Source: an uncultured Bacillota bacterium
GTDB lineage: Bacteria; Bacillota; Clostridia; Christensenellales; UBA1242
Direction of reading: 5' to 3'
Length of the DNA stretch: 47,740 bases
Assembly: GCA_949298925.1 (NCBI GenBank)
Contig: CASFYE010000044.1
Span: 1 to 47,740 of the forward strand
Shown: positions 6,834 through 38,218 of the stretch, one piece after another
How positions within the stretch are numbered: the first letter of the stretch is position 1
Layout: the number at the start of each line of letters is the position of its first letter
Notes under the pieces: generated by a model
Databases searched by the model: none
The model's input: only the letters and a program-made list of their open reading frames with translations
Told to the model about the DNA's origin: nothing
Made by a program: the position numbers and the translations under genes

Positions 6834-6840
6834 AAAAATG

Positions 6841-15185: not shown

Positions 15186-16559
15186 TTAAAATTTTATTTT
15201 GTTTGATAGATAGCTAGCCAAGCTGTCAATTTTAATTCGTTCTTGCTTCATGGTGTCTCTATCTCTTATGGTGACGCTGTCGTCTTGCAAAGTGTCAAAA
15301 TCGATTGTAACGCAAAAAGGCGTTCCAATTTCATCTTGTCTTCTGTATCTTTTTCCTATTGAACCGGATTCGTCATAATCGCACATAAATGAAGAGGACA
15401 AGCTGTTGTAAACCTCTTTGGCTTTTTCAGAAAGATTTTTTTGTAAGGGTAAAACTGCAACTTTAAATGGTGCAATCGCAGGATGAAAGTGCATAACGAC
15501 CCTGGTTTCTCCATTTTCCAATTGCTCCTCGTCATAGGCATCACACAAAATGACGAGAGTCAATCTATCTGCGCCTATTGAATATTCTATCACGTGTGGT
15601 ATATATTTTTCATTGGTAAATGGATCGGTGTATTCCATAGATTTGCCTGAAAATTCTTGGTGACGAGAAAGGTCGTAGTTTGATCTGTTGTGGATTCCGT
15701 TTAACTCGTCCCAACCCATTGGATAGTTGTATTGAATGTCACACGCAGCTTTTGCATAATGTGCAAGTTTGTCGTGATCTTTAAATCGTAAGTTTTCTTT
15801 TTTAATTCCTAGGTCGAGCAAAAAGTCAAAAGCTTTTTGTTTGAACTGCTTGTAAAATTCTTGATCTTCACCGTCTTTGCAGAATTGTTGATGCTCCATC
15901 TGTTCAAATTCTATTGTTCTAAAAATAAAATTTCCAGGTGTTATTTCATTTCTAAAAGCCTTTCCGATTTGGGCGATACCAAAAGGCACCTTTGCACGCA
16001 TTGAACGTTGCACGTTTGCAAAGTTGACAAATTCACCCTGAGCTGTTTCTGGACGCAAATAGATTTTGTTTGATGATTCGTCCACGACACCGCGTGAAGT
16101 TTCAAACATCAAGTTGAATTGTCTGATAGGTGTCCAATCAAATTTTCCACAAATAGGACAAGCAACGTGATGAGTTTTTATATAATCTTCCATCTCTTCA
16201 TTTGCCATTGTGTCTGGATTGACTGTCGATTTTGAATGAGCAGAAATCAAATTGTCTGCACGACAACGTGATTTGCAGTTTTTGCAGTCCATCTTTGGAT
16301 CAGAAAAGGAAGAAGTGTGGCCACTTGCGTCCCAAACTCTTGGATTCATCAAAATGGCGGCATCAACGCCATATGAAGTTGGACATTCTTGAACAAATCT
16401 TTTCCACCAAGCTTTTTTAATATTGTTTTTTAATTCAACACCAACAGGTCCATAATCCCAAGTATTTCCCATGCCACCATATATTTCACTGCCAGGGAAG
16501 ATGATGCCACGTGTTTTGCACAAATTCACTATTTTGTCTAAGTTTTTTAATTTTTCCAT
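15186..16559 (-). CDS. glyQS: glycine--tRNA ligase (alpha2 dimeric type)
   Basis: MEKLKNLDKIVNLCKTRGIIFPGSEIYGG...RPETAQG...GIGADR shows strong class II GlyRS similarity. The start was set to the ATG at 16559 after an AGGAGA RBS. The 56 extra N-terminal codons in the ORF track read through the T-box leader. Confidence 0.92.
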   Translation of the reverse strand: MEKLKNLDKIVNLCKTRGIIFPGSEIYGGMGNTWDYGPVGVELKNNIKKAWWKRFVQECPTSYGVDAAILMNPRVWDASGHTSSFSDPKMDCKNCKSRCRADNLISAHSKSTVNPDTMANEEMEDYIKTHHVACPICGKFDWTPIRQFNLMFETSRGVVDESSNKIYLRPETAQGEFVNFANVQRSMRAKVPFGIAQIGKAFRNEITPGNFIFRTIEFEQMEHQQFCKDGEDQEFYKQFKQKAFDFLLDLGIKKENLRFKDHDKLAHYAKAACDIQYNYPMGWDELNGIHNRSNYDLSRHQEFSGKSMEYTDPFTNEKYIPHVIEYSIGADRLTLVILCDAYDEEQLENGETRVVMHFHPAIAPFKVAVLPLQKNLSEKAKEVYNSLSSSFMCDYDESGSIGKRYRRQDEIGTPFCVTIDFDTLQDDSVTIRDRDTMKQERIKIDSLASYLSNKIKF

Positions 16560-16574
16560 AAGTTTCTCCTTTAA

Positions 16575-16710
16575 AAACAAAAGCCCTATGCCAAAATAAG
16601 CATAGGGGCGAGTTGTTAGTTCGCTGTTCCACCCTAATTCGCAAAAAGCCTCATTAATTGTCTTTACGCCGACAAGCGTTAGCTCAGGAGTTGCCAAGTC
16701 CTTCACAGCT
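16575..16710 (-). promoter_or_regulatory. glycine T-box riboswitch leader (transcription attenuation type) with a very short Stem I
   Basis: Read on the minus strand.
- T-box sequence: AAUUAGGGUGGAACAGCG.
- Antiterminator: UAGGG-UGGAACA-GCGA...UCGC-CCCUA. Its UGGA bulge is complementary to the UCCA end of tRNA-Gly.
- Competing terminator: GCCCUAUGC/GCAUAGGGC followed by a U-run (plus 16583-16608).
- A GGC codon sits in the loop of a 30-nt 5' hairpin (plus 16681-16710). Confidence 0.85.
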
Positions 16711-16716
16711 AAGATT

Positions 16717-16745
16717 ATTTTATTCATTTGAAATTAATTTGTCAA
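16717..16745 (-). promoter_or_regulatory. sigma-A promoter of the glyQS leader (TTGACA-17-TAAAAT)
   Basis: On the minus strand, TTGACA corresponds to plus 16740-16745, followed by a 17-nt spacer, and TAAAAT to plus 16717-16722. Confidence 0.7.
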
Positions 16746-16783
16746 CATTTTTATCCTAAAATCAAACAATATTTTTATATGTT

Positions 16784-18361: not shown

Positions 18362-18686
18362 AAAACATAGTTCCTTTTAACGAAAAGATTATATCTAATT
18401 AAAAATCAAAAGTCAAATATTATGCTTATTAAAAATATTTTTCAAATTTGAAAAAAATTAATTTTAAGAAAAATTTGCAATAAATTAATAAAAAAAATTA
18501 AAAAAATCAAAAAAATGTTAATTTAATAATAAAAAATTAAAAAAATATAAAAATTGTCGATTTGTTTTTATTTTAATAAGACAGAAAAAAATGTTTCTGT
18601 AGAGAATATGGTTAAAGATTTTTAAACATAAAATTTTATGTTTTTATTTTTTTTATTATTTAAATAATAAAACAACCGTCGTTTGT

Positions 18687-18715
18687 TTGGTGTTTTTTGT
18701 CAAAAAAAGTATAAT
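18687..18715 (+). promoter_or_regulatory. candidate promoter of the giant gene (TTGGTG-17-TATAAT)
   Basis: TTGGTG is at 18687-18692 and TATAAT at 18710-18715. It is followed by a small hairpin (ATCCTT/AAGGAT) and a TAAGGAGG RBS. Confidence 0.5.
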
Positions 18716-18764: not shown

Positions 18765-21700
18765 ATGAAACTAAAAGCACCAAAAACATGGCAAATGGTT
18801 TTGATATTCGTGACCATAATTTTTTTGGCAGTGGGCGGAGGCGTTTTGTACGTCTATTTAAATGATGGCTTCAAGCCAAAAGTTATTTATCCAGAAACTA
18901 TTGATGTGCAAGACTTAGACAATGTCTTAAATTCAACTAGGGCTCAATATGAAGCGACTGAGGATTTTCAATTGACGTTTACTTCTCAAACGGAAGGCGT
19001 CAACAGAAAGGGAATTACTCTTTCGTTTCCTTCGGGCATAGCGGTTACTAGAGATGCAGAAAACGGAACGATTTCCGACGGAGTAATTACAGTTCCAGAA
19101 AAAGTCACGCTTGGGCAAAGCTTTACCGTTTCACTAGTTAAACAAGCGTATGACAAAAACAACAATTTGATTGAAGATTTAAACGATTACAATGCGGAAG
19201 AAGACGGAGCCATTACTTACATAAACAAAGGTGGTGTTTCCAACCTTATCATAACTCCTGAAAGCAACACTGACTATAACAAACAAATCACAATTGCAGT
19301 TGACGTGCCTGTGCTTGAAGTAGAATTAAAATTTGTCGACATCACAACAGGTTTTGAATATGCTCAAGAAGATGGCGCAACCATAATACCAGAAGGCACA
19401 AATTTTGTTGCTAAGCCGATTTTTGTTCCACAGCAAAGCGCTTACATGTTCAGCGATGAAAAAAATTCCAACGTGAGCGCGCAGGACGTGCGTGAAAAAA
19501 GTGTTTACTACACTTTGGGGACAGGCGTCACAGGCATACAGTTAAATCAATCTGATGACGGTGTTTATTTCACTGCATTAGAAGAGGTTTCGCAAGGCAA
19601 CATCGTAAATGCGTTTGCTTTTTCTAGTTCAAAAGATGAACTGGACTTTTTGGCCCAAAACTCGACGTTAGATGGAGTTGCGCTTTACAATCAAGCAATC
19701 AGCTTTTTATCAGCCAGTGATTCGGCAATAAAAAGCGAGGGAAATTTGTCGGTTGTCGAGGCAAATGTTGGGTTGTTTAGCATACTGCAAAACTCTGTCA
19801 GCAACCCTTACGAAATGAGTGTTGACAAGCTGTTTACTATCTTAGCGGGCGGTGACAGTTCGAAAGGCGGTGCTTTGAGCGCCACTATTCAAGACGTTCA
19901 CGGTGCAGATCTTTCCGGCATGATCAGAAACATTGGAATGAGAGTTGTTTCAGCGACAGGAGCAAATGGAGAAAATCTCATTGGCAACATTGTCTTGCGT
20001 GGTGGAAGTGAAAGAGAGGCAAGCAATGGGAATACATATGTTTTGATAAATTCAAACGTTCGTGACTTAAATTTGGCATATTTTGAGTTGTCTTCAAACG
20101 TCGAGTGTGAGCTTCAGCTGGCAATAGCGCTCATCGTTCAGGACGAGGAAGGCTCTTACAATATTTTTGAAGAGGAAAAGACTTTATACGCAAAGGTTTC
20201 GACGCATCAAGAAGATGTCGTTTCATGGGATGCAAGTTGGCAGGACGTTGACGGCATCAACTTGAAGATCATCTACGAAAATGGCCAGCCAGTCCCAGCA
20301 CAATATGGGCAAAACCTGTTTGATGTTGCAAACGTCCCTTCATCAAACGTTTACCAAAGAAAGGTGGTTTTCGCATATGGTGAAAACATCGATGGCAAAA
20401 TAGAATATGACACTGTTGGCAAAGGGACTTATTCTGTAAACGGAAGTTCCACCGAGCTTTATCCTTTGGCGAGTGGCGAACTTATTGCAAATAAAGCCAC
20501 AACATTTTACATAGTGTTTGCCACTGTCAAAACAGACGCTTACAATCAGCCTGTGTTTAATGATGATGGCACGTATAAACTGATTCAAGTTTCGTCAGCT
20601 GTTGCGGTCAATGTTGAAAACAGTTTGCGTGGGATAAAAAATGTTGACATCGAAGTTGGAAACGGAGAAAAGTGGCTTAAATATAATGAAACAACACTTT
20701 CCGCTTACGCGATTCCATCTGGTTCAAACATAGTTGGCAACGTCATTGGCAATGACATTGTCATGACAATTCAAGTAGAAAATGGTGACGAAGAGCTGTT
20801 TATAGAAGAATTTAACAACGGCAACATCACCTTCTTCGCTTCCAAAGACGCAGGTGGCGATGGCGAAAAAATGACAAACATATTTAGGTTTTCATCGCCG
20901 ACTTCAAATGGGGCAGGGACTGGCGAAGTTTCGGTAAACATCGGCATTGAACCAAATTTAAAATTTGCTATTGAAACAGGTGAAAATTATTACATTTTTA
21001 TTGAATACGACAACTCAATTTCTACAGAAAGAAAGATTGCAAATATTGGCGGAGAGGAAATTCAAGATTATATAACGATTTATGATCAACAAACTAAAAC
21101 GATAGAAAGTGAATTAAAGGATAAAGTCCTCAACGTTACTCAAACATTACAGTCAGACGGCACAAGTGAGATAAGCATAACAGGATTGACTGGAACGGAA
21201 AGTTTAGACGAGTTAAATGCTTATTTTCAAGAATATAATGAGACTTATTATCCAAACGGAATAAAAACACTCGACCAATATGGCAGAGAGTTTGAAGGGG
21301 ATTACACAATTTCCTCATCAAACTCAACACTTGTTATGGCAAACAATCTTGACAAATCTTTAAGCTTTGGCAACGGAAGTGGAAATGCAACAGTTACAAT
21401 TAAGTCTGGCAGTGCCACTGTCCGCCTAACTCTTAATGTTACAAGCACAGGCGTTTCAAAAATTTGTGTGTTGGATCAAGGATACGCAGGCACCTCGTCA
21501 GTTTCTTATGTTTATACACCGACATCGGTAGGCGAAGGAAGTGCGGAGGTAGGCGAAGGTAGTGCGGAAATTAAGTTAAAAAACGAAGGCCCAACGAATC
21601 CAAGCACATTAGTAACTGACGGCATATTGACTGTTTATGTTGGGGACAAAATTTATAACTACGATAAATATAAAATAACTCTTGCACCAACATTTTTGTC

Positions 21701-24700
21701 AGAAGTTAATGACGATTTGTGGGACATGATTAGTTATAAAACCTCGTCTTCAATTGGTTGGTCTGCTGCAGGTGCAAAACCAGACAGTAGCACGGAAATT
21801 TATTCATTGCGTGTAAACAATCATTTTGGGAAAGACGTAACTTTGCTTTTCAATGCGCGTAACGACAACAACACATTAAATTTCACCTTTTCGTTTACCA
21901 TTAAAAAGACCGCTGAACTAGAAAGAAACAGTTTAAACGAAGTAAATTATGGTGGAGAAATCACGGGGGTAGAAGGTCACACAGACTCAAACTCAATAGG
22001 TGTTTATGCAGGGTTTGGAATCAACTTAAATGATGAGAATGTAGAAGTTACCAACTATCTTAAAGTGAAAAATGTTAATTGGGGTGCAGTTTTTGAAGAG
22101 GAATATTACATACATAGTGGCGGGGATATAAACAAAACTGAGGCCAATGCAATTGCTACAATAAAAAAAGGCGTGCTCACCTTTAATGATGTCACACAAC
22201 CGACCAATTACAATTTTACGTTGTATGCTGTTAATAAACCAAAAGATGGAACACGGGTTGGAAATTATTACGGCTATTTAATCGAACTTTCATTCACAGT
22301 TTATCCAAACTTAAAAATCAATCCTCAAAACGATTCCGAAATTAGCTTAGCAAGTATTGCTTCTGCTACCAATGGATATAGTTATAGCAATGTTTTTACA
22401 ATTGGAAGAATAACCACCTTAGCGCAAGAGACTGATTCATCTATTGGAACTGTGCCTTTAGATCCAAACAAAAACATAACCGCAGGTGGTTTGATAAGCA
22501 ATTATAAATTTGTTGATGAAAATGCAGGTGGGTTACAATATTTATCTTTAGATGGTAATAATATTGTTAGAACGGAAACCTATTTGTATTACGATAAAAA
22601 CACAACAGGGAAAGAAATCGTTTTATATGCGTATGACGCAAATGGTAATGTGGTCGCTTCAGAAACCTTCAACTTGACCCTTGGTTTAGAAATTAACGAT
22701 TTAAACGAGCTTTTAAAAACAACTGACAATAACAAGGCGATAGTTCGTGCTCAAAAATATGATGGCACACAAATGGCATTAATCACTCAAAACTCAATTG
22801 ATGTTGTGAGAGGTTGGGCAGATTCCGGTCTTACAGCGGAACTGATGGTGGGCGCAAACGGAAGCTTTTATCAACTTACAGGGACAACAGAGAAGAAGTA
22901 CACCATAAGCTTGAATCCAAACGGCCAAGCCATCCGTTGTGACAAAAACACTTATTTAAAATTTAACTTTTCTTCCGGTGAGCTTGATTATGCGACATGG
23001 GACGTTCCAGTCATATTGTCGCAGATAGGAAGCGATTTTCCTGGGGAAGACACAGAGAATAATTTTGATTTGTTTGACGTAATAAACAATGGCATTAAAA
23101 CATCTGTCATAGCTGGCGGAGCATATTCGCTGTTTGATTTAGCAGACATAACAGGTTCAAATATTTCTTTTACTTATTTGGTTGATGGAGAAATTTGCAC
23201 AGACTATGAAACTTCGGTGATAAGTTCGCTGGAAAACGGAATGCTAGTTTTGAAAAATCTTTCAAACAATTGTAAGGATTTGATCAATGGCACGTTGCCT
23301 TTAGAAATTCAAATAACGATGCAAAATGGCGTTTATTCTCAAACATTTGTTTTACATGTTTTGGTTAGCCCAAATGCGACACTTGACAAAGTAAACTATC
23401 CATATGATGGAGCGACGGCAGAATTTTTAACGGTTAAAGGGTCAAAACCAATCGTCTTAAGCGATCCGCACGATAATGGTGAAAAGCGTTTCCCAGACAC
23501 TGCCACTCCAACAGTAGAAGAAAATATAACAAGCACGTTGACACTTTCAGAGTCAAATTACGTAGGTAGCATAACAATAAATTCAAAAGACTACGACGTG
23601 CAATACAATGCCGAAGATGGCGGTTTAACACTGACAAAAGACGGAGAAAACATAAACGGCACCAATGGAAAAATTGTCGTAGAAGGGAAGCAATACACCT
23701 ATTCCTTCGCTGAAAGCACGTTAACTTTGAGTTTGATTGGATTAGGTGATTCAATCTACAGCATAAAACAATTCACAATCAATGGAAATTCATCAGCATA
23801 CGAGGGATTTATTTCTCTTGAAGGGGAAACTTTGACGATAGACGACCAAAGTGGAACCTTGCAAAATGCTACACTTGTTATAGAAAAAAGGTATTCAAAT
23901 TTCTTTGGAGAGTCGCTGGAATACACTTTCATAATCAACAGCACCGATGTTGAATATTTCTTGAATATTGCAAGTGAAACAAGTGGTGACACGGCTTCTG
24001 AGGAAGGCAACGATTGGGTTATAACTCTGGATCGCAACGAAACCAATCACCTATTCTCAATTACAACAAAACAACGAAGTGAGGATGGTGGCGAGAGCAA
24101 CGTTTTGCCAAACGAAGTCACAACAAAATTGGTTGAAGAAAGCAAAGAAGGCTATACATTTGATTTTGAAGATGTCATTGAAAATCCTAAGACTTTGACA
24201 ATTACAACGCCAGTCTTTGTCGAGGCAGACACGGTTATCGACTTGACTTTTGTTGTCAATGACGGACAAGCAGAAATAAAAGTGCGAGTCATCGTTCCAG
24301 CGACCGTGGAAATGGAATGGATCGCTGACACCTCATTACCAGGTGGCAGTGAGTATAGTGTGGCTAATTATTTGATTAAAAACTTGAATAAAGATGGGAC
24401 ATTTAATGATAAGGCATATGTAACTATAAATGACGTTACTTTTACATATGATGATTCTACAAATGCGAAGAAAGGCTACTTAGAATATGATATGAGCAAC
24501 CAAAAAGTTAAAGTTCAACCTATATATCAAAATATTGAACGAGCGACAATAAAAGTTGCATATGCTTATGTTGAAAACATTACTGTTGAAGGTAAAAGCT
24601 ATTTTGTAGTTTATGATATAACAAGCAATTCGTTGATCTTAAAACAGGTGATTAAAAGTAGTGAAGGTTCGATAACGATTGATGACAAAACTTACACAGT

Positions 24701-27700
24701 GGGCACAACGGAAAGCGGTGAGACAACATTGACATATTTAATTGATGGCACACCATCAGGAGAAGAAACATCAAAGACAGGGACAATCATCATAGGCGGT
24801 GCAACATACACCTACACTTACACTGAAACAAATAAAATTACTTTAAGTAAAACTGACGACGAAACTTTTACACGTGAGATTGATCTTTCTATCGCCTCAC
24901 CAATCGTAGAAATAGATAGTAAAACATACAACGTTGAATACATCTCTGACAGCAATTCGTTGACCTTAAAACTCGTGTTTACAAGCAGTCGTGGTTCAAT
25001 AATAATTGATGACAAAACTTACACAGTGGGCATGACGGAAAGCGGTGAGACAACCTTGACATATTCAATTGATGGCACATCATCAGATGGCGCAAATGCA
25101 AAAACAGGGACTATCACCATAGGCGATGAAAATTACACCTACAATTACGAGTCGTCTAAGTTGACATTAACTAAAGAAGGATCAGAACCAATTATCACAT
25201 ATATTCGGACAGGTTACACCGAAAAGACTTTTGACTTTGAACCAAACTTAACTACGGTGTCACAGGGTATAGGGGACGTTTTATCACGCGAAACTGAAAC
25301 AGTGTCTTTAAGAAATCTTTTGGAAAGTTCTGGGACGTCAATAAATTTGGGTGGGGTATATAGCCTTATTGCAGTCAATATTGATGGAAACTTATTTGAT
25401 ATTAGTGCTCCTGATAAAGGCGTGTACGTTCAAGATGACGATTTAAAGATCACTCCAGAATATGTTGGGCAAAACACTCCTACTAGCATAAAGTTTAAAC
25501 TTACTTATACAAAAGGTGATTACACATTTACTACAAACGAAATCGAATTGACGTTTACTATTGTTGCTGCCGCAACATACGAAGTGTCTTATCCAAATCC
25601 TTTTGGCACAACCAAGGATTTGGGTTATGAAAGTTATTCTAAGGAAATCATAGAAGATGATGGTGGTGGAATAAACCTAAACAATCATTTTGGTGGGACA
25701 GCCGATTTTGCACAAGCGGAAAGAATAAAATTTAGCGATGTAAGTCTTGGCGACACCATAACAGAAACTTCTAAGAAATTTTCTGAAATTGCGAACGGCG
25801 TAACCTATACAATCATATCGTTCAGCGGATTTACAAATGATGGGCAACAAATCACAAGTGCAGAAGGCATTCGTGATTCAGGTAAATGGGCAAGCGGAAT
25901 ATTTAAAGTTGCAGGAGGTGTCGAAGTCGCAGAGGGGGCGTCAGTCACTTTTGGTATAACTTATAAAGGAGTTACGGCGCAATACACAGTTTATTTCTTT
26001 AGCACTGTCATTTCCGCAAGCACCAACAACACAATAAACCATGTCACAATTGCTACAGAAAATTATGAAAACATCTATGCTGACAAAGGGGATATTTACG
26101 GCGACGAAGGGAAAACAAACATCTTCGCGAAAAACAGGCTTGTCGAACTTGGCATATTAAAAGACGGAGCCGAGGCGGGGTCTTTGCAAAAAATCTATGC
26201 AAGACCAGAGGGTAAAGATGACACAACAATGTATGAACAACTCGCATCGTTCGTCTTAACTCAAAGCATGATTGACAGAGGAGCCAACATCTTTGTAGAT
26301 ATTGGAATTTTAAATGGCAAGACAATCGGTGGCAAGCCAATTTCAACAGTAGTAGACAATTTACTTGGTGAAGGCTATGAGTTTGTTGTTGGCTCTATAA
26401 ATCAAAATGGCGAATTTGTTGGCTCTACTTCAATTCAATTCATTAGGCAGGCAAGCCGTGTTGAATACAAATACAGACTGTCAAATGGAAGCACACAGTT
26501 GATTAACAGCGAAACCTTAATTGTTTGTGAAGAAGAAAAACTGGCTGTAAATGAACCAAGCAAATTTGAAAATAATGAAACAGCGACCTTTAATGTCACT
26601 TACAAAATTACAGAGGGTGGTATAGAAAAAGGAACGATAACTTACAAACTTAAAAAAGTGCTTGACATCGAGGCACAATACGCTTGGTCATCGGCCAATA
26701 AAACAGTTATTGAAATCGAAACCAACAAAATCAACACCTACACAATCGTAAAAGAAATGGGAATTCGCCACCCATCGACTGGCGAAATGCTGTCGGCTGA
26801 CAATATTGGAAACGCCGAAATAGATTTAACTGTTGTAAACACTAAAGACAATACATTTGATTGGAACGATATTGATGGGGGGTGGCCAGATGGCGTTACG
26901 GAAAACGATTTTGTTTATCAAACGGAAGCTGGTGATGACTATTTAAGCTTTACACCTATCAAAAACAGCGAAGAAAAAATCTATGACTACTACTTGTTCG
27001 GTGAAGGAGCCGACAATGATGGAAGTTACGTCCTTTTAAAACTGAATTATATTGCAGGAGGCACAGACCAAACTTTCTATTTCGTAGTCAAGTTGATTCC
27101 TGATTACAACGTTACGATTGGAGGAGTGCAAGTGGCTGTTCCTGGGGTGGTTACTGACGGAGTGGCTACAAATGAGGAGAGCCCTTACAATTTCGTGCCA
27201 GACGGTGAAAGTAATTTCAATATTGCAACAAACAGTGATTCAATCGTATCCTTTGTTAGATCAAACTGGGACAGCAGTAACATTGCAAAAAGCTTGACTT
27301 ATAAGTTGACAGTGAAAGATGCAGGGAATGGCTACAATGAAGCAAGTAATATCGCAAAATTGAATATAGGTTCTACATGGAAAAAACAAGAAAATGCTCA
27401 GTCTGGTTCTGTTGCAGTCGGTTCAGGCGATGTCGCCGCTGTCGGCAACATTTACACATGGAAAAACGCTAGTGGATCAACGAGTGAACTAAAATTGGTG
27501 CCTTCATTAATCGCGTTTGGACAGAAGATGTATATGCTTGAAATAACCAACTCATGGGGATTTAAAATAGAGTTTTACTTCACGCTTTCCTCTCCAACAG
27601 CTCAAAATCCTGTCATCAGCACGGCTTATTCTGATGCAACATTTACTGAAGGTGAAAATTTTGACGTTGGCGTAATTTATGATAAGATTGTTGCAACACC

Positions 27701-29525
27701 AGTCATAGATGAAGAAGGCACAGCAACTGGAGAATATGACTTGACAATACAGAGAGACATCCTGCCGGAAGACAATAGTGGAGCAGTGAAGATGATCGTT
27801 GTTGACAATATTGCAACATGGGGCATAAACGCAGAGGCGCAAAATGTTGTCGGTGGAGAAGACAACAACATCAATAGCGGAGAAGATATTTATAACAATT
27901 ATATGGCTAGTACAGCCAACATGATTTATCAATACGTTACGATTGAAAGTGTTGGATTTAAATATCTTGATGAAAATTCAGAAAATGCTGAACCTGACGA
28001 AGCAGATTACGAATTAATTACAAGTTCTGATTTGAAATCATCGTGGCAAGGCATAACTTATACAGGAATAGGTAAGGGGGAAAACCCAGGGCGATTTACT
28101 GTTCCTAATTTGCCAGGTTGGTACTATGGAACAAATAGTAGCGTTCAAGTTGAAGTGCATGTAACGTTGCAGTATTCTAAGAACGGTGACACAGAAACTT
28201 GTGACATCAGCTTCCCAGCAACAGTAAGCAAACAATACAGCATTAGCACCGCGCAAAATGTTGTAATCGATGGGGAAGAATTTGCTTTAAGTGATTACAT
28301 AGTAGTGGTTAACGGAAACGGAACTAGCGGAAATGACATTATAACCCCAAGCTATTATGATGACACACTAGAGGTTACATTGCCAGCTGGTGGTCAGGCG
28401 ACAGTGAACGTTGAGATGACACGTAGCGGTGATGAAACATTTGAAGGTTCGAAAACGCTCAATAACACGTTACAATACAGGCCAGAAACCACCTACAACA
28501 GTTTGTCTGAAATATTAGGTATGACATTGCAACCTGACACCGATACTGTAAAAATAAAGATTACTGCTTCTGAAGGCACGTCAGATGATGAAGATTTCCG
28601 TGTGAGATATGGTGGCAGTGATATAAAAACAGATTGCTTAGGAGACGGAGGTTATCGAATCAGTTGGTCGGTTATTACACACGACACATTGTATATCGAA
28701 GATTCAGGAAGGTTTACAAACAATTATGCTACTGTGAATAAATCATATATCGTTAAAGTAAATGGCTTCTATTATCGCTACAATCAAGTTTACTGGTTGA
28801 CACGTTACTTCTATTCTCTCGACACTGGCCTCGGCGACACAACAATAAGACAAATTGTTGCAGATGCAGAAGGCTCAGGCATTCAATATAAAAACGGTGA
28901 CAACTGGTCCGATTATGACGGAACTTTAAAAGGCAACTTCAAAATACCTATAAGCGCATGGGCGAAAGACGTAAAAATCTATCAAGCAACTCAAAGCTCG
29001 GGGCAAGTGACAAATGGAACACTTGCAAGCTTGTCAGGTTTGTTTGAAGAAGAGTTTGATGTTACTTACACTTACAACGCTGGAAGTGAAGGAGTGTCAG
29101 CAAGTTGTGTTTTTAGTGGCGGAGATGGAATTAGTTTTGGAACTGTTAAGTATGAAAATGGAGTTGGAACGGTTACTATGACACTTGGAGATGAAACAAC
29201 CACCTACGATTTTAAAACAGATTCAAGCGGAAAGCTTATTTCAATAAATAGTCATGCCGTAGATGTTGCAAGTGGAGAAACATTCAGTTCGATTTTGCTT
29301 ACAAGTTCAATTTACTTCGAAGTAACTGCTGGCGTAGGAGATGTTTCAACAGCATATTTTGATGGAACAGATCTTTACACTGGTGATAATTACACCATTA
29401 ACAAGCAACAATATATTTTGGTTAACATCTATGTTAAAGCATCAGGCGGGCCAGACAAAACATTTGAAAGAAATGAAAAAGGCTATGACTATCGTTTGGG
29501 TTGGTTTAGAATTATCTTAGTTTAA
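18765..29525 (+). CDS. giant membrane-anchored surface protein (3586 aa), orphan
   Basis: This is an uninterrupted 10.8-kb ORF with a strong AAGGAGG RBS and an N-terminal signal-anchor (WQMVLIFVTIIFLAVGGGVLYVYL). The composition is Thr/Ser/Asn/Gly/Val-rich and beta-type with very few Cys. Internal repeats are present. I see no LPXTG or other known anchor. Confidence 0.8.
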   Translation: MKLKAPKTWQMVLIFVTIIFLAVGGGVLYVYLNDGFKPKVIYPETIDVQDLDNVLNSTRAQYEATEDFQLTFTSQTEGVNRKGITLSFPSGIAVTRDAENGTISDGVITVPEKVTLGQSFTVSLVKQAYDKNNNLIEDLNDYNAEEDGAITYINKGGVSNLIITPESNTDYNKQITIAVDVPVLEVELKFVDITTGFEYAQEDGATIIPEGTNFVAKPIFVPQQSAYMFSDEKNSNVSAQDVREKSVYYTLGTGVTGIQLNQSDDGVYFTALEEVSQGNIVNAFAFSSSKDELDFLAQNSTLDGVALYNQAISFLSASDSAIKSEGNLSVVEANVGLFSILQNSVSNPYEMSVDKLFTILAGGDSSKGGALSATIQDVHGADLSGMIRNIGMRVVSATGANGENLIGNIVLRGGSEREASNGNTYVLINSNVRDLNLAYFELSSNVECELQLAIALIVQDEEGSYNIFEEEKTLYAKVSTHQEDVVSWDASWQDVDGINLKIIYENGQPVPAQYGQNLFDVANVPSSNVYQRKVVFAYGENIDGKIEYDTVGKGTYSVNGSSTELYPLASGELIANKATTFYIVFATVKTDAYNQPVFNDDGTYKLIQVSSAVAVNVENSLRGIKNVDIEVGNGEKWLKYNETTLSAYAIPSGSNIVGNVIGNDIVMTIQVENGDEELFIEEFNNGNITFFASKDAGGDGEKMTNIFRFSSPTSNGAGTGEVSVNIGIEPNLKFAIETGENYYIFIEYDNSISTERKIANIGGEEIQDYITIYDQQTKTIESELKDKVLNVTQTLQSDGTSEISITGLTGTESLDELNAYFQEYNETYYPNGIKTLDQYGREFEGDYTISSSNSTLVMANNLDKSLSFGNGSGNATVTIKSGSATVRLTLNVTSTGVSKICVLDQGYAGTSSVSYVYTPTSVGEGSAEVGEGSAEIKLKNEGPTNPSTLVTDGILTVYVGDKIYNYDKYKITLAPTFLSEVNDDLWDMISYKTSSSIGWSAAGAKPDSSTEIYSLRVNNHFGKDVTLLFNARNDNNTLNFTFSFTIKKTAELERNSLNEVNYGGEITGVEGHTDSNSIGVYAGFGINLNDENVEVTNYLKVKNVNWGAVFEEEYYIHSGGDINKTEANAIATIKKGVLTFNDVTQPTNYNFTLYAVNKPKDGTRVGNYYGYLIELSFTVYPNLKINPQNDSEISLASIASATNGYSYSNVFTIGRITTLAQETDSSIGTVPLDPNKNITAGGLISNYKFVDENAGGLQYLSLDGNNIVRTETYLYYDKNTTGKEIVLYAYDANGNVVASETFNLTLGLEINDLNELLKTTDNNKAIVRAQKYDGTQMALITQNSIDVVRGWADSGLTAELMVGANGSFYQLTGTTEKKYTISLNPNGQAIRCDKNTYLKFNFSSGELDYATWDVPVILSQIGSDFPGEDTENNFDLFDVINNGIKTSVIAGGAYSLFDLADITGSNISFTYLVDGEICTDYETSVISSLENGMLVLKNLSNNCKDLINGTLPLEIQITMQNGVYSQTFVLHVLVSPNATLDKVNYPYDGATAEFLTVKGSKPIVLSDPHDNGEKRFPDTATPTVEENITSTLTLSESNYVGSITINSKDYDVQYNAEDGGLTLTKDGENINGTNGKIVVEGKQYTYSFAESTLTLSLIGLGDSIYSIKQFTINGNSSAYEGFISLEGETLTIDDQSGTLQNATLVIEKRYSNFFGESLEYTFIINSTDVEYFLNIASETSGDTASEEGNDWVITLDRNETNHLFSITTKQRSEDGGESNVLPNEVTTKLVEESKEGYTFDFEDVIENPKTLTITTPVFVEADTVIDLTFVVNDGQAEIKVRVIVPATVEMEWIADTSLPGGSEYSVANYLIKNLNKDGTFNDKAYVTINDVTFTYDDSTNAKKGYLEYDMSNQKVKVQPIYQNIERATIKVAYAYVENITVEGKSYFVVYDITSNSLILKQVIKSSEGSITIDDKTYTVGTTESGETTLTYLIDGTPSGEETSKTGTIIIGGATYTYTYTETNKITLSKTDDETFTREIDLSIASPIVEIDSKTYNVEYISDSNSLTLKLVFTSSRGSIIIDDKTYTVGMTESGETTLTYSIDGTSSDGANAKTGTITIGDENYTYNYESSKLTLTKEGSEPIITYIRTGYTEKTFDFEPNLTTVSQGIGDVLSRETETVSLRNLLESSGTSINLGGVYSLIAVNIDGNLFDISAPDKGVYVQDDDLKITPEYVGQNTPTSIKFKLTYTKGDYTFTTNEIELTFTIVAAATYEVSYPNPFGTTKDLGYESYSKEIIEDDGGGINLNNHFGGTADFAQAERIKFSDVSLGDTITETSKKFSEIANGVTYTIISFSGFTNDGQQITSAEGIRDSGKWASGIFKVAGGVEVAEGASVTFGITYKGVTAQYTVYFFSTVISASTNNTINHVTIATENYENIYADKGDIYGDEGKTNIFAKNRLVELGILKDGAEAGSLQKIYARPEGKDDTTMYEQLASFVLTQSMIDRGANIFVDIGILNGKTIGGKPISTVVDNLLGEGYEFVVGSINQNGEFVGSTSIQFIRQASRVEYKYRLSNGSTQLINSETLIVCEEEKLAVNEPSKFENNETATFNVTYKITEGGIEKGTITYKLKKVLDIEAQYAWSSANKTVIEIETNKINTYTIVKEMGIRHPSTGEMLSADNIGNAEIDLTVVNTKDNTFDWNDIDGGWPDGVTENDFVYQTEAGDDYLSFTPIKNSEEKIYDYYLFGEGADNDGSYVLLKLNYIAGGTDQTFYFVVKLIPDYNVTIGGVQVAVPGVVTDGVATNEESPYNFVPDGESNFNIATNSDSIVSFVRSNWDSSNIAKSLTYKLTVKDAGNGYNEASNIAKLNIGSTWKKQENAQSGSVAVGSGDVAAVGNIYTWKNASGSTSELKLVPSLIAFGQKMYMLEITNSWGFKIEFYFTLSSPTAQNPVISTAYSDATFTEGENFDVGVIYDKIVATPVIDEEGTATGEYDLTIQRDILPEDNSGAVKMIVVDNIATWGINAEAQNVVGGEDNNINSGEDIYNNYMASTANMIYQYVTIESVGFKYLDENSENAEPDEADYELITSSDLKSSWQGITYTGIGKGENPGRFTVPNLPGWYYGTNSSVQVEVHVTLQYSKNGDTETCDISFPATVSKQYSISTAQNVVIDGEEFALSDYIVVVNGNGTSGNDIITPSYYDDTLEVTLPAGGQATVNVEMTRSGDETFEGSKTLNNTLQYRPETTYNSLSEILGMTLQPDTDTVKIKITASEGTSDDEDFRVRYGGSDIKTDCLGDGGYRISWSVITHDTLYIEDSGRFTNNYATVNKSYIVKVNGFYYRYNQVYWLTRYFYSLDTGLGDTTIRQIVADAEGSGIQYKNGDNWSDYDGTLKGNFKIPISAWAKDVKIYQATQSSGQVTNGTLASLSGLFEEEFDVTYTYNAGSEGVSASCVFSGGDGISFGTVKYENGVGTVTMTLGDETTTYDFKTDSSGKLISINSHAVDVASGETFSSILLTSSIYFEVTAGVGDVSTAYFDGTDLYTGDNYTINKQQYILVNIYVKASGGPDKTFERNEKGYDYRLGWFRIILV
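21528..21569 (+). repeat. 21-nt tandem duplication (VGEGSAE x2)
   Basis: gtaggcgaaggaagtgcggag is followed directly by gtaggcgaaggtagtgcggaa, with 2 mismatches. Confidence 0.85.
24585..25238 (+). repeat. tandem duplication inside the giant gene, 327-nt (109-aa) period
   Basis: VEGKSYFVVYDITSNSLILK...ITIDDKTYTVGTTESGETTLTYLIDG... aligns with IDSKTYNVEYISDSNSLTLK...IIIDDKTYTVGMTESGETTLTYSIDG.... The near-identical nt cores start at 24678 and 25005, an offset of 327. Confidence 0.85.
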
Positions 29526-29528
29526 GCC

Positions 29529-29610
29529 ATGACAAAAGTGCCCGCATTACGCGGGCGCTTCGCCGAAAGGCAAAGCAAAACTTTTCGTTAGAAAAGGTTA
29601 CTTTTGTCAT
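29529..29610 (+). ncRNA. structured element E2: 82-nt four-way junction, same architecture as E1
   Basis: Hand-folded.
- P1: 29529-29539 pairs with 29600-29610, 11 bp.
- H1: 29540-29545/29551-29556, 6 bp, loop ATTAC.
- H2: 29557-29564/29569-29576, 8 positions with one C/A mismatch, loop GAAA.
- H3: 29581-29586/29591-29596, 6 bp, loop GTTA.
It starts 3 nt after the giant-gene stop and ends 21 nt before the cls start. Confidence 0.45.
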
Positions 29611-29631
29611 AGGGCGGAAAGGAGGAAAACA

Positions 29632-31089
29632 TTGCATTGGGCATTTTGGGTTTTGACAGCATTTGGTATATTGGGAGTTGTTAACCTATTTTTACTTGTA
29701 GGTATGGTTTTTCTCGAAAAAAAGAAACCTCAAACTATTATTGCGTGGCTCTCCATTTTGACCTTTTTTCCAGGAATTGGATTTATATTTTACGTGTTGC
29801 TGGGGAGTGGATTAAGCTATCGAACACGTAGAATGCTTAAAAAGAAATCAATTTCTGAAAAAGACGTTTTGAACAACATTAGGGGTTTACAAACATTTTC
29901 AGAAGTAAGTGGAACAAAAAACTTTGGTCAAAATGCCGAACTTGTCAAGCTTTGTTTTGACATGGGGGGCTATCCATGTTTGTTTAATGATGTGAAATAT
30001 TTTTGTTTTGGATTTGAAAAGATGGCAATTTTAAAGCAAGATCTTTTGTCTGCAAAAAAATCTATCAATTTGGAATATTACATTTTTGCCAATGACAGAG
30101 TTGGCAAGGAAATTATGGACATTCTTGTGAAAAAAGCCAAAGAGGGCGTTAAGGTAAAACTTATTTACGATTCAGTTGGAAGCAAAAAAACAAGAAAACG
30201 ATTTTTCAGAAAGCTAGAAAAAGCAGGTGGTGAGGTGGCGGAATTTTTTCCTCCATTCATGCATATAAGGATGATCAATTTAAAAATCAATTATCGCAAT
30301 CACAGAAAGATAGTTGTAATTGACGGCAAGATTGCATATACCGGTGGAATAAACATTCGTGAAGATCACATGGGAATGAAAAAGAAGCTTTCGCCATGGC
30401 GTGATGCGAGTGTTAGGATAGAGGGCAGTGGGGCTTTCCCATTACAAAACATTTTTCTTGATGACTGGCGTTATGCGAAAAAGGACAACACACCAGTTGA
30501 AAATTATATAGAGGAGTATTTCCCTTTGCCACAGCAAAAAGGAGACGTAGGCTTGCAAATTTTGACCTCTGGGCCAGATTCGAAACTGCAAAAAATAAAA
30601 GAGGCTTATGTAAAAATGATAACCTCTGCTAAAAAAAGGGTTTGGTTACAAACACCATATTTCGTGCCTGATGATGTGTTTATATCAGCTTTAACGATCG
30701 CGCAAAAAAGTGGCGTTGATGTGAGGATAATGTTGCCGGCAAAACCTGACAGGTGGACCGTGTTTTTTCCAACACTTTCATATGCTCGAGAAATGGCACA
30801 AATAGGAGTTAAAACTTATTTTTATAATGGTTTTATGCATGCTAAGACATTGCTTGTTGATGACAACCTGTTATCGATTGGAAGTTGTAATTTGGACAAC
30901 AGATCGTTTGGACTTAATTTTGAATCGACTGCAATTATGTATTCAGAAAAGCTTAACAATCAATATGCCTTAGAAATGAAAAAAGATATGGACAATTCAA
31001 ATCTAGCAGATGAGTCTTATTTTAAAAAAGCGCCAGCTTTAAGCAAAATTGCTCAATCGGTTTTCAGACTTTTCGCGCCATTGTTATAA
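29632..31089 (+). CDS. cls: cardiolipin synthase
   Basis: It has two N-terminal TM helices and two HKD motifs (HRKIVVIDGKIAYTGGIN and HAKTLLVDDNLLSIGSCNLDNRS). The start is a TTG preceded by AAAGGAGG. Confidence 0.9.
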   Translation: MHWAFWVLTAFGILGVVNLFLLVGMVFLEKKKPQTIIAWLSILTFFPGIGFIFYVLLGSGLSYRTRRMLKKKSISEKDVLNNIRGLQTFSEVSGTKNFGQNAELVKLCFDMGGYPCLFNDVKYFCFGFEKMAILKQDLLSAKKSINLEYYIFANDRVGKEIMDILVKKAKEGVKVKLIYDSVGSKKTRKRFFRKLEKAGGEVAEFFPPFMHIRMINLKINYRNHRKIVVIDGKIAYTGGINIREDHMGMKKKLSPWRDASVRIEGSGAFPLQNIFLDDWRYAKKDNTPVENYIEEYFPLPQQKGDVGLQILTSGPDSKLQKIKEAYVKMITSAKKRVWLQTPYFVPDDVFISALTIAQKSGVDVRIMLPAKPDRWTVFFPTLSYAREMAQIGVKTYFYNGFMHAKTLLVDDNLLSIGSCNLDNRSFGLNFESTAIMYSEKLNNQYALEMKKDMDNSNLADESYFKKAPALSKIAQSVFRLFAPLL

Positions 31090-31100: not shown

Positions 31101-31134
31101 AAAAAAAACTTTGCCATTTGGCAAAGTTTTATTT
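31101..31134. terminator. bidirectional intrinsic terminator between convergent cls and the nucleoside hydrolase gene
   Basis: ACTTTGCCA (31108-31116), loop TT, TGGCAAAGT (31119-31127). It is flanked by an A-run on the left and a T-run on the right. Confidence 0.8.
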
Positions 31135-34982: not shown

Positions 34983-35179
34983 TAAGACCTCCTAACTCAT
35001 TTTATTCTTTGAATACGAAATTGTTAAAAGGTTAGGAGAGGTTAAATACAAAAAAGAGTTAAAAAAATAAAAAATTTATCATTTATGATCAAACAAAATA
35101 TTTTAAATAGTCGTGAAAAGCCTTATTTATAAACATGAAGGGTGATAATAAATTTATTATGTAAAAAAAGTGATAATTC

Positions 35180-35205
35180 TGGTGCGCCGTAAGAGATTCG
35201 AACTC
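35180..35205 (-). repeat. orphan copy of the 3' 26 nt of tRNA-Arg (att-like direct repeat)
   Basis: tggtgcgccgtaagagattcgaactc at 35180-35205 is identical to 35278-35303, which covers the CCA, the acceptor 3' strand and most of the T-arm of the intact tRNA. No matching 5' acceptor strand, D-arm or anticodon arm is present. Confidence 0.8.
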
Positions 35206-36300: not shown

Positions 36301-36379
36301 GAGGACGGCGCTGTGCAGAACATGCACAGCACGCGCAAAAGCGCGTTGCAAATTTTTTTAAAATTTGCTTGCCGTCCTC
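36301..36379 (-). ncRNA. structured element E3: 79-nt four-way junction, same architecture as E1/E2 (strand uncertain)
   Basis: Hand-folded.
- P1: 36301-36309 pairs with 36371-36379, 9 bp.
- H1: 36310-36317/36323-36330, 8 bp, loop GAACA.
- H2: 36331-36336/36341-36346, 6 bp, loop AAAA.
- H3: 36348-36355/36361-36368, 8 bp, loop TTTTA.
All pairs are Watson-Crick. It lies 24 nt downstream of the uvrC stop (minus strand) and upstream of the tRNA-Gly promoter. Confidence 0.45.
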
Positions 36380-36403: not shown

Positions 36404-38218
36404 TCATAAATTATCCTTCTTAAAATGTTCAATGATTTGGTGAGCAAGAGCTTCGTGTATTCCTGGTAAAATACAAAGTTCTTCTATGCTGGCTTTTTTG
36501 ATTTGTTCAATAGAACCAAATGCATTTAACAATGTTTCAATTTTCTTTTTACCTAGTCCGCTTATCTCTTCTAACTCGCTGTGCGTTTGTGCTTTTGTTC
36601 TTACCTGCCTGTGAAAAGTAATTGCGAACCTATGTGCTTCATCTCTAATGCGCTGTAAAAGCTTTAATTCTGCACTTCCTGGTTTTAATAATATAGGATT
36701 TTCATGATGGGGCATATATACCTCTTCAATACGTTTAGCAAGTGCAATCATCGGTAAATTCATGTTGAACTCTTTTAAAACTTCTTGACAGGAAGACAAT
36801 TGACCTTTTCCACCATCGATGATAATTAAGTCCGGGGTGACTTTAAAGCTTTCACTTAATCCTTCTTTTAACCTTGCAAGTCTTCGCCCAAGTGCTTCTT
36901 TGAGTGAAGCAAAATCATTTGAGCCTTTTACATGTTTAATTTTAAATTTTCTATACTGATTCTTTGCTGGTTCTCCGTTAACAAAAACAACCATAGATGC
37001 GACTTTGTTTGTTCCGCTAATATGAGAGATGTCGTAACATTCCATTCTAATAGGAAGGGTCGGTAGATTTAGTGATGTTTTAAGTCTTTCCAGTGCTCCA
37101 ATCGTAGAAGCATACTTAATCTTGTTTTTTTCGATATGTTTTTCTAAAAATTCCTTAGCATTTTCATTTGCCATCTTTAACAAAGTCGAATTGATGCCAT
37201 GAGGATTGACAATCAATTTTGTCGTCTTTTTCCAAAAGGACAACAAAAGATCTTTGTCGTCTAAGTCGTGGCTTAAAATTATCTCTTCTGGCACGATCAT
37301 GTTTTCGTAATATTGTGTCAAAAAGTTAAACAAGGTTTGGTTTTCTTCTAGGCTGGCGTCATTTATTGTGTAATTCAACACTCCCAAAATTTTTCCCCCT
37401 CGCAATACCATGGAGGTAATGACACCATTCAGGCCATCGTTAACGTAAGCGAATACATCTTTGTTGACATTTTTAGGTAGATTTGCGACTACGCGCTGTT
37501 TTAACTTGTTTACCATTTTTAAACGCTCTCGATAGACTATTGCACTTTCAAAGTTTTCGTTATCTGATGCGATTTGCATTTTTTTATTTAAAATTTCTTC
37601 AATTTCTTCGTCATTTCCGCTTAAAAAATTGATAACCTTTTTAATTTTGTTTTGATATTCTAAATAATCAATTTTTTTTGTGCAAGGGGCAGAGCATAAC
37701 CCAAGTGAATAATTCAAACATTCGCGTTTTGCTTTTGACGTCTCGCTTATTTTTAAATTACAGGTTCGCAAGCCAAAAGCTGAATTTGCTGTTTTAACGA
37801 TTTCGCCGGCATTTAATCCAGCAAAATATGGCCCGAAATATTTCCAGCCAGGTTTGCCTACTTTCCTAACTACTTGAAGTTTAGGAAAGGGATCGTTCAT
37901 GTTGATAGCTATATAAGGGAAGGTCTTGCTGTCTTTTAATAAAATGTTGTAATGAGGTTGATATTTTTTAATAAGATTGTTTTCAAGTGCGAGCGCGTCC
38001 CTTTCTGAAATTGTGATAAAATATTCAAAATCATCTATGTTTTCTACCATAGCTTGAACCTTGCTCGGTTTAGGAGATGATCTAAAATATTGTGAAACTC
38101 TATTTTTTAAATTTTTTGCTTTTCCAACATAAATGACAATGCCATCTTTGTTTTTCATTACATAGACGCCACTTTTTGTTGGGAGAGCAGTTAGTTTACT
38201 TTTTATTCTGTCGTTCAT
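36404..38218 (-). CDS. uvrC: excinuclease ABC subunit C
   Basis: It has an N-terminal GIY-YIG domain (GVYVMKNKDGIVIYVGKAKNLKNRVSQY), a UVR domain, an RNase H-like endonuclease domain and a C-terminal HhH2. Length is 604 aa. Confidence 0.92.
   Translation of the reverse strand: MNDRIKSKLTALPTKSGVYVMKNKDGIVIYVGKAKNLKNRVSQYFRSSPKPSKVQAMVENIDDFEYFITISERDALALENNLIKKYQPHYNILLKDSKTFPYIAINMNDPFPKLQVVRKVGKPGWKYFGPYFAGLNAGEIVKTANSAFGLRTCNLKISETSKAKRECLNYSLGLCSAPCTKKIDYLEYQNKIKKVINFLSGNDEEIEEILNKKMQIASDNENFESAIVYRERLKMVNKLKQRVVANLPKNVNKDVFAYVNDGLNGVITSMVLRGGKILGVLNYTINDASLEENQTLFNFLTQYYENMIVPEEIILSHDLDDKDLLLSFWKKTTKLIVNPHGINSTLLKMANENAKEFLEKHIEKNKIKYASTIGALERLKTSLNLPTLPIRMECYDISHISGTNKVASMVVFVNGEPAKNQYRKFKIKHVKGSNDFASLKEALGRRLARLKEGLSESFKVTPDLIIIDGGKGQLSSCQEVLKEFNMNLPMIALAKRIEEVYMPHHENPILLKPGSAELKLLQRIRDEAHRFAITFHRQVRTKAQTHSELEEISGLGKKKIETLLNAFGSIEQIKKASIEELCILPGIHEALAHQIIEHFKKDNL

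Follow-up and report, generated by a model that had tools for sequence, protein, structure and literature searches.

The 47,740-nt window analysed here (GenBank assembly GCA_949298925.1, contig CASFYE010000044.1, positions 1 to 47,740) is chromosomal DNA of an uncultured Clostridia bacterium of the gut type, whose nearest relatives are metagenome-assembled genomes (MAGs) labelled "uncultured Clostridia bacterium". Between a giant 10.8-kb open reading frame (ORF) and cls, a gene for a cardiolipin synthase-type protein, it contains an 82-nt element, hereafter E2, which is a real, exceptionally stable, selectively maintained and lineage-specific four-way junction lying outside the described families. 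Its structure, its extreme stability, the purifying selection acting on it, the missing U-tail, the lack of room for a promoter and the phylogenetic distribution are on an established footing. As to its role, we tentatively favour the possibility that E2 arose from an ancestral terminator and represents a branched form of the stem-loops known from selective RNA processing and stabilisation (SRPS) in Clostridia.

Read from 5′ to 3′, E2 starts with the arm ATGACAAAAGT of a closing stem, continues with three hairpins, namely GCCCGC-ATTAC-GCGGGC (H1), GCTTCGCC-GAAA-GGCAAAGC (H2) and CTTTTC-GTTA-GAAAAG (H3), with the linker AAAA before and the linker GTT after H3, and ends with the complementary arm ACTTTTGTCAT, which is followed by AGGGCGGAAAGGAGG without a U-tract (Table 1). 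The helices are perfect apart from a single C/A mismatch in H2 and contain no internal loops, and the junction linkers are 0–4 nt long. The loop of H2 is of the GNRA type on the plus strand, and that of H1 is variable, being ATGTT in L001 (the loci of relatives are numbered L001, L002 and so on). In the window the closing stem can be extended by pairing GCC at 29526–29528 with GGC at 29613–29615 across a 2-nt bulge. The structure, the coordinates and the placement between the upstream stop codon and the cls ribosome-binding site had been proposed in a first-pass annotation made from the sequence alone, and both the sequence and RNAfold proved it correct in every detail.

According to RNAfold, the four-way junction is the minimum-energy as well as the centroid structure on both strands. 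Over 101 nt the folding energy reaches −45.0 kcal/mol on the plus strand (z = −6.40) and −46.5 kcal/mol on the minus strand (z = −7.74), with none of 200 dinucleotide shuffles folding equally well in either case; the overall folding energy of E2 is −40 to −45 kcal/mol. The junction persists in a 381-nt context fold and when parameters for DNA are used (−27 kcal/mol, z = −7.5). In the minimum-energy folds of the region the cls ribosome-binding site is unpaired. Two further assemblies of the organism, made independently (L012 and L013), carry E2 unchanged, so it is not an assembly artefact, and it is slightly altered in L029 and L001. Both of the latter have T instead of C at position 29561, which makes the H2 helix perfect, and this comparison shows the C/A mismatch to be derived and limited to the window strain.

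A local-fold scan found only three intergenic structures in the window at ≤ −22 kcal/mol and ≤ −0.40 kcal/mol per nt, namely E2 and two further four-way junctions designated E1 and E3. A stem-seeded structure scan recovered the latter two (E1 at 6842–6918 with −44.5 kcal/mol, E3 at 36301–36379 with −47.9 kcal/mol) with an E2-like topology, and the sequences of all three are mutually unrelated.

No U-tract follows the closing stem of E2 either in the window (AGGGCGGA, with no T among the eight positions) or in L001 (GTTGATGT), the terminator scan did not call E2 on the plus strand, and no promoter-like site was found in the 21 nt between E2 and cls, which include the ribosome-binding site. Since a U-tail is missing and the space left before cls is too small for a promoter of its own, E2 is expected to lie within a common mRNA of the giant gene and cls; the gene spacing and the state of relatives described below suggest that the two genes are co-transcribed, E2 included. 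The proposal that cls is read through the structure is supported in this way. The other route to cls expression considered in the first-pass annotation, a weak internal promoter (ATGACT-16-TAGAAT, 29485–29512), is a 9/12 consensus match inside coding sequence which is weaker in L001 (ATGATT...TAGAGT), and it was rejected as the main route because of its weakness, its location and its lack of conservation. Readthrough of the giant-ORF stop codon or extension of the ORF into E2 was rejected as well, the frame not being conserved in L001. E2 was also rejected as an ordinary intrinsic terminator, having no U-tract and not standing at the end of a transcription unit. If E2 is part of the cls mRNA, consequences at the RNA level are unavoidable because an RNA of −40 kcal/mol will fold.

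The orthologous junction between the giant gene and cls was compared at 11 loci recovered through cls and three more obtained via exact-protein look-ups, which are ordered here by cls identity to the window. E2 is present, with a perfect H2, in L029 (97.5%) and in the sister species L001 (96%), its distribution being limited to the window species and this one sister species. L002 and L028 (91%) possess two tandem hairpins, the second of which (TTTGCC-GCAAA-GGCAAA) is clearly a homologue of H2, and have neither H3 nor the closing stem. No structure is found in L003, L004 and L005 (87–88%), where the ribosome-binding site is located about 30–40 nt after the stop codon and the giant gene runs into cls without a promoter or a terminator; the same state is seen in L027 (78% UvrC identity). 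The more distant L006–L009 (78–80%) have an ordinary hairpin with a T-run followed by a TATAAT promoter and an ATG start. This comparison, which had been suggested in the first-pass annotation, is divided in its outcome: because several relatives lack E2 and have no compensating structure, E2 is to be regarded as a lineage-specific addition and not as a conserved requirement of the giant-gene/cls junction, and within its own lineage it is under strong purifying selection.

The latter is indicated by the comparison of the window with L001, in which 1 of the 58 paired E2 bases and 3 of the 20 unpaired ones are changed, the three all being located in the five-nucleotide loop 1. Of the four-fold degenerate sites, 94 of 163 are changed in cls, as are 38 of 72 within the 100 codons flanking E2 on each side, so the E2 stems are significantly more conserved than the cls four-fold sites (Fisher p = 5e-16), and the spacer just 3′ of E2 cannot be aligned between the two. 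L029 is not an independent witness because of its near-identity to the window around E2 (4 of 81 flanking four-fold sites differ); a mosaic boundary lies inside cls, in the rest of which 61 of 127 four-fold sites differ. In the same locus the 11-nt sequence GTTTAAGCCAT, which includes the giant-gene stop codon, is present as a tandem copy at L029:2876–2897, directly adjoining the closing stem of E2 on its 5′ side, which suggests replication slippage beside the structure.

The 11-mer CAAAGCAAAAC is common to E2, where it covers the 3′ arm of H2 and the linker, and to the terminator of L006, where it covers the 5′ arm and the loop at the same site; elsewhere in about 1 Mb searched on both strands it has only two chance occurrences. 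From this shared segment and the states found in relatives, E2 looks like a rebuilt, stepwise descendant of the terminator hairpin ancestral at this site. The same stepwise series from a terminator through two hairpins to the junction also agrees with a non-adaptive origin, in which E2 would be a terminator relic produced by inverted duplication or template switching, or else the footprint of a mobile palindrome. The element is lineage-specific with several relatives lacking it, the sequence directly around it is less conserved than the element itself, which is what one would expect of a mobile insert, and template switching can make perfect stems in one event (PMC8794818). However, its stems are far more conserved than the neighbouring neutral sites (p ~1e-15), and in E3 the loops have diverged at the neutral rate with the stems intact and one pair changed in a compensatory way. 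Moreover, there are no target-site duplications, a blastn-short search with E1, E2 and E3 against the window and 29 related loci (~0.5 Mb) found orthologous copies only, and an exact-pattern scan of the JGI metagenomes for the E2 core gave no matches. It is therefore quite improbable that E2 is merely a by-product. For want of extra copies in the window and the 29 loci, an assignment to repeats or mobile elements of the REP, BIME, BOX, ERIC or MITE-like kind was also rejected.

E3 is located on the minus strand, 24 nt after the uvrC stop codon, and in the sense direction it is followed by the U-rich tail CCTCTTATTTTTCTT and the TTGCAA-17-TATAAT promoter of tRNA-Gly(CCC), so that it probably represents a branched intrinsic terminator. 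Among the relatives, the sister clade L015–L018 (~90% UvrC identity) has it, L025–L027 (81% and 78%) and L005 lack it, and L007 and L008 have a simple terminator at the site. Between the window and L015 the only changes in the stems are 2 of 64 bases, which together make up one compensatory G-C to A-U pair, as against 10 of 17 unpaired positions (stems versus loops, p = 6e-7) and 93 of 170 four-fold sites of uvrC. The loops vary freely, and in L016 there is an additional G-U pair on the uvrC-sense strand. Such a pattern, as far as the alignments go, appears to be the classical footprint of selection on base pairing.

E1 is predicted to form the transcript 5′ end of the gene at 7007–8878, since a strong promoter, kept in L019–L024, ends 6 nt before the first paired G. 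The idea that elements of this kind are located near a 5′ end holds in the case of E1, but not on the basis of the promoter candidate named for E2, which is not conserved. E1 is conserved in L019–L023 inside a leader of about 170 nt, its fold is kept across indels in L019, and just 3′ of it there is a conserved leader hairpin; an alternative pairing of GTTGC 6868–6872 with GCAAC 6945–6949 is also predicted. The 7007–8878 gene codes for a 623-aa protein with no Pfam match and occupies a dcw-cluster position after mraW. Its leader up to the ATG is nearly identical in L020–L023, while the four-fold sites of mraW differ by 42–49%. The ancestry of the window is mosaic in this region: its mraW is L019-like (6 of 114 four-fold differences), but the leader and the 7007 gene are L020-like.

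A further four-way junction of 94 nt and −64.6 kcal/mol was found in L024, a relative with 74% MraW identity. This L024 element begins 5 nt beyond the stop codon of mraW and precedes the promoter homologous to that of E1, whereas E1 in the window lies downstream of it. The two resemble each other in the closing stem (GGCCGAAGC) and in the third hairpin, and two compensatory pairs can be seen in the first hairpin, in a manual alignment only. The L024 element has a cUUCGg tetraloop and is followed by the U-rich tail TTGCTTGTTTT and then by the promoter. Besides this element and the orthologues of E1–E3, no further junctions of such quality were detected either in 11 loci (179 kb) by the structure scan or in about 430 kb of the window and loci by the local-fold scan. 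The E1 closing-stem pattern GGCCGAAGC-N50-80-GCTTCGGCC gave 120 matches in the JGI metagenomes, all of them chance matches in high-G+C DNA and none of them a clean junction.

Taken together, the junctions follow a simple rule with respect to their tails: E3 and the L024 element, which stand at the ends of transcription units, have a U-rich tail and then a promoter, and E1 and E2, which are located inside units, have no tail. As the presence of the tail tracks the context, the junction itself is not the terminating part but rather a probable stability module: junctions that have a tail also act as branched terminators, tailless ones are read through, and E2 is of the read-through kind. Hairpin-plus-T-run terminators are ordinary in the genome of the window, for example at 31105–31130, so the junctions represent a distinct class and not a local style of terminator.

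It is with these findings that the proposal of a partial intrinsic terminator or attenuator has to be compared, according to which some polymerases would stop at E2 and thus give a high level of the giant-gene product and a low level of the cls product. The E2 site is indeed orthologous to the canonical terminator of L006–L009, with which it shares CAAAGCAAAAC, E3 and the L024 element look like branched terminators, UUUU occurs in the 3′ closing arm right after H3, and on the minus strand H1 together with ACTTTTGTCA passes a terminator-like scan. The proposal, which was one of those made in the first-pass annotation, is nevertheless weakened by the missing U-tract in both the window and L001 and by the fact that E2 has neither the U-tail nor the promoter seen after E3 and the L024 element. 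H3 is weak, with only two G-C pairs among its 6 bp, efficient termination would silence the promoterless cls gene, and L003–L005 have no structure at the site at all. We thus consider partial termination unlikely.

With respect to the geometry, the topology shared by E1, E2 and E3, as first described, holds as an outline but does not extend to an oriented fold. On the sense strand the linkers of E2 are 0, 0, 4 and 3 nt long and those of E3 are 2, 1, 0 and 0, i.e. the mirror image, so the two are unlikely to share an oriented tertiary fold. The statement that the folded strand is not settled remains fair, as the cues from mismatches and tetraloops conflict. The mismatches are divided two against two, with C/A on the sense strand in E2 of the window and in E1 of L022 versus G-U in E3 of L016 and a G-U to A-U change in E1 on the sense strand. 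The GAAA loop of H2, shared by the window with L029 and L001, and the cUUCGg loop of the L024 element appear as stable RNA tetraloops on the sense strand and favour it, while TTGC of E1 reads as GCAA on the antisense strand. The plus strand, that of the flanking genes, is taken here as the probable RNA-sense orientation of E2.

A good fold on both strands would also be expected of an element acting at the DNA level, either as a structure in single-stranded DNA or as an extruded cruciform, serving as a site of protein binding, recombination or replication. The fold is equally good on the two strands and with DNA parameters (z from −6.6 to −9.4), all three elements have the same linker asymmetry on the window plus strand regardless of gene orientation, recombination mosaics end near E1 and within cls, and the 11-nt tandem duplication in L029 adjoins E2. 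On the other hand, branched extrusion from duplex DNA is energetically costly, and the shared polarity of three elements out of three would arise by chance in about one case in four. The precise placement at transcript boundaries and the U-tail tracking the expected end of transcription follow an RNA logic, and RNA is also suggested by the GNRA and UUCG loops on the sense strand. A role in DNA therefore appears rather improbable. The direction of replication could not be derived from the GC skew, which follows gene orientation and is uninformative in this respect. The skew changes sign near 32 kb. In the relatives L020 and L022, gidA-gidB-parA-parB are found upstream of the left end of the window, pointing into it, and gyrB-gyrA at the right end point inward too; either such a gene order is unusual for origin-proximal Firmicute genes, or the skew merely follows the gene strand.

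E2 does not belong to any RNA family covered by the searches performed. No Rfam model, RF00005 for tRNA included, matched E1, E2 or E3, whether at the gathering threshold or with the cut-off relaxed to E ≤ 10, and ARAGORN found just two true tRNAs, tRNA-Arg and tRNA-Gly, and none at the three elements. A riboswitch or a four-way-junction ribozyme (twister-sister, hairpin) was rejected owing to the lack of an Rfam match and of internal loops; perfect helices, mostly tetraloops and linkers of 0–4 nt leave no place for a ligand pocket or a catalytic core. Retrons, integron attC sites and IS200/IS605 ends were rejected too, as the neighbourhood contains no reverse transcriptase, integrase or transposase.

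The four-armed, cloverleaf-like outline at the boundary of two coding regions resembles that of tRNA-like elements. RNase P cleaves within operon mRNAs, and tRNA-like t-elements are found at the ends of plant mitochondrial mRNAs, so a tRNA-like processing signal (a "t-element" cleaved by RNase P or RNase Z) or a landing site for a specific RNA-binding protein may be considered. On the minus strand there is, as in tRNA, direct stacking between the last arm and the closing stem, and the unpaired positions of E2 outside loop 1 are conserved. But the helices are long and perfect, neither their lengths of 11, 6, 8 and 6 bp nor the tetraloops agree with a tRNA, E2 lacks a T-loop, a D-loop and CCA, the loops of E3 vary freely, and neither ARAGORN nor Rfam recognises any of the three elements. 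E2 was consequently rejected as a tRNA mimic, and either form of this explanation is considered very doubtful.

Of the roles proposed in the first-pass annotation, a stability or processing determinant combined with read-through appears to give the best fit, and the SRPS stem-loops of Clostridium (Ruminiclostridium) cellulolyticum provide the closest parallel. As described for that organism, 28 of 33 intergenic stem-loops have no U-run and do not terminate transcription. They guard upstream segments at the 3′ end, the extent of protection correlating with folding energy, lend stability to processed transcripts at both ends and serve as cleavage signals, and with the growth of the intergenic regions they "emerged" and turned "increasingly compact" (PMC4423207; PMC10311766). 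In the terms of that description, E2 is similar in being located inside a putative operon just 3′ of a gene, in being G+C-rich, in having no U-run, as most SRPS stem-loops do, and in belonging to Clostridia. Gain, loss and compaction in the course of evolution match the series observed at the E2 site, from no structure through two hairpins to the junction. E2 is thus a stable intergenic structure without a terminator tail inside a probable operon, as an SRPS-type element is.

According to this stabiliser reading, the polymerase would read through E2, and the 82 nt would collapse into a compact four-way junction of about −40 kcal/mol in which the 11-bp stem locks the three hairpins. E2 might then block 3′-to-5′ exonucleases, so that the 10.8-kb upstream message would be protected after endonucleolytic cleavage, and it might also, or instead, act as a structured 5′ end shielding the processed cls segment. 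The net result would be a ratio of giant-gene to cls products set without termination of transcription. The branched form would spread the folding energy over helices of 6–11 bp, whose coaxial stacks of about 17 bp are maybe too short for RNase III, and if the closing stem were opened by a ribosome that terminates 3 nt upstream, the three hairpins would stay intact. Exonuclease blocking, processing and the effect on the expression ratio are all proposed here by analogy.

Comparable functions are served by other bacterial structures. The intercistronic REP/BIME stabilisers of Escherichia coli (e.g. malE-malF) and the 5′ stabilising hairpins of ompA and of the aprE and ermC leaders block exonucleases and shape operon expression. 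They share with E2 the property of being stable mRNA structures, and E1 at its predicted 5′ end is placed like a 5′ stabiliser. REPs occur in hundreds of copies of shared sequence and are simple imperfect palindromes, unlike E1–E3, which are single-copy and unrelated. Intrinsic terminators have G+C-rich helices in common with E2, and the E2 site is orthologous to a true terminator in L006–L009, but E2 differs from them in having no U-tract, in being branched and in standing 21 nt before a promoterless gene.

Several points weigh against the stabiliser reading. E2 is equally stable on both strands, and its sole internal mismatch is C/A on the sense strand and would be a G-U pair on the antisense strand. 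No covarying pairs exist among the three E2 sequences, the stems being invariant, and the conservation of unpaired positions outside loop 1 is compatible with a sequence-specific partner or with recent transfer of the element. Close relatives do without E2, several of them having no compensating structure, and recombination is frequent in the group, with breakpoints near E1 and inside cls, which complicates arguments from conservation. The SRPS elements, as described in the two reports, are single stem-loops of −6.6 to −31.8 kcal/mol, in contrast to a closed four-way junction of about −40 kcal/mol. Furthermore, the flanking genes are not known to code for subunits of one complex.

Some of the same features could be explained by control of cls translation, with E2, folded on itself, holding the stop codon of the giant gene at a spatial distance of about 24 nt from the cls ribosome-binding site and serving as a coupling, standby or insulating platform against upstream pairing. 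When closed, the element takes 82 nt out of the effective spacer, as it starts 3 nt after the stop and ends 8 nt before the ribosome-binding site; this site is unpaired in the minimum-energy folds, and the spacer in L003–L005 is about 30–40 nt. However, such a role accounts for the tolerance of an insertion and not for its retention, coupling is irrelevant in the contexts of E1 and E3, and the terminating ribosome must melt the closing stem. We regard it as very improbable.

Returning to stabilisation, the three elements of the window are best read as a lineage-specific set of junctions at transcript boundaries, with E1 at a 5′ end, E2 internal and E3 at a 3′ end. A bolder version, which is unlikely, would make them members of a structure-defined class of perfectly paired junction RNAs of about 80 nt that arise de novo repeatedly in one Clostridia lineage, e.g. 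from terminator hairpins by inverted duplication, and act as orientation-independent, nuclease-proof "knots" marking 5′, internal and 3′ transcript boundaries, perhaps read by a lineage-specific junction-binding factor. Within such a class, branching might have been selected because it places −40 to −48 kcal/mol in helices too short for RNase III and lets the inner hairpins survive melting of the stem.

The coordinates of the features mentioned are given in Table 1. The giant ORF has no match in a Pfam domain search at E ≤ 0.01, and its C-terminal region is conserved among the relatives recovered via cls. Upstream of it, the region 18400–18700 is extremely A+T-rich and contains several long imperfect A/T inverted repeats (I1–I3, I13, I15). 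An exact-protein lookup with the window cls protein returned no record. The minus strand at 16601–16754, upstream of the synthetase gene, shows a sub-threshold match to a T-box leader (40 bits versus a gathering value of 93, E = 1.5e-5). A 31-nt direct repeat at 35175–35205 and 35273–35303 copies the 3′ end of tRNA-Arg(ACG), the extra partial copy being followed by a small hairpin, and L011 has about 3 kb of additional DNA at this position; the repeat looks like a scar or an attachment site of an element integrating into tRNA genes. The window also codes for an ABC-F protein, a nucleoside hydrolase, hisS, a UvrD-family helicase, gyrA and gyrB.

Table 1 Features of the window and of the L024 locus discussed in the text; positions refer to the window unless the locus is named.
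Feature	Position	Strand	Description
rsmH/mraW	5780–6730		followed by a dcw-type cluster with a PBP
Promoter-like site	6805–6833	+	TTGAAA-17 nt-TGcTAAAAT (extended −10); ends 6 nt before E1; kept in L019–L024
E1	6840–6920	+	four-way junction, predicted to open the leader of the 7007–8878 gene at its 5′ end
Leader hairpin	6928–6947	+	TGCGATC-GATTTT-GGTCGCA; conserved, just 3′ of E1
Class II aminoacyl-tRNA synthetase gene	15186–16727		
Giant ORF	18765–29525	+	3586 aa, 10.8 kb; TAA at 29523–29525, 3 nt before E2
E2	29529–29610	+ (strand of the flanking genes; folded strand assumed)	82-nt four-way junction
E2 closing stem, 5′ arm	29529–29539	+	11 bp, paired with 29600–29610
E2 H1	29540–29556	+	6 bp, variable loop
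E2 H2	29557–29576	+	8 bp, GNRA-type loop on the plus strand
E2 H3	29581–29596	+	6 bp; linkers at 29577–29580 and 29597–29599
E2 closing stem, 3′ arm	29600–29610	+	no U-tract following
cls ribosome-binding site	29619–29625	+	AAGGAGG; 8 nt 3′ of E2, 6 nt before TTG; kept in L001–L005
cls	29632–31089	+	cardiolipin synthase-type PLD protein, 485 aa; TTG start 21 nt after E2
Terminator after cls	31105–31130		canonical, bidirectional; hairpin and T-run
E3	36301–36379	−	four-way junction, 24 nt after the uvrC stop
uvrC	36404–38218	−	
L024 element	L024:10939–11032		94-nt four-way junction, −64.6 kcal/mol; relative with 74% MraW identity

Three junctions of unrelated sequence within 48 kb and a visible evolutionary series are noteworthy; a conventional explanation exists for them, and they are unusual without being revolutionary. 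The graded series from a terminator with a promoter through nothing and two hairpins to the closed junction makes the stepwise assembly of a complex RNA fold visible in a way that is rare and directly open to testing. In synthetic Firmicute operons, compact non-terminating structures of −40 kcal/mol without sequence repeats may be useful as insulators or stability parts. Should the effect of E2 turn out to be small, it would still illustrate cleanly how strongly purifying selection can act on an intergenic structure of unnamed function. If the stabiliser reading is true, it would mean that bacteria tune the output within operons with branched four-way junctions, beyond simple hairpins, and that such modules arise quickly from an existing terminator when two transcription units fuse.

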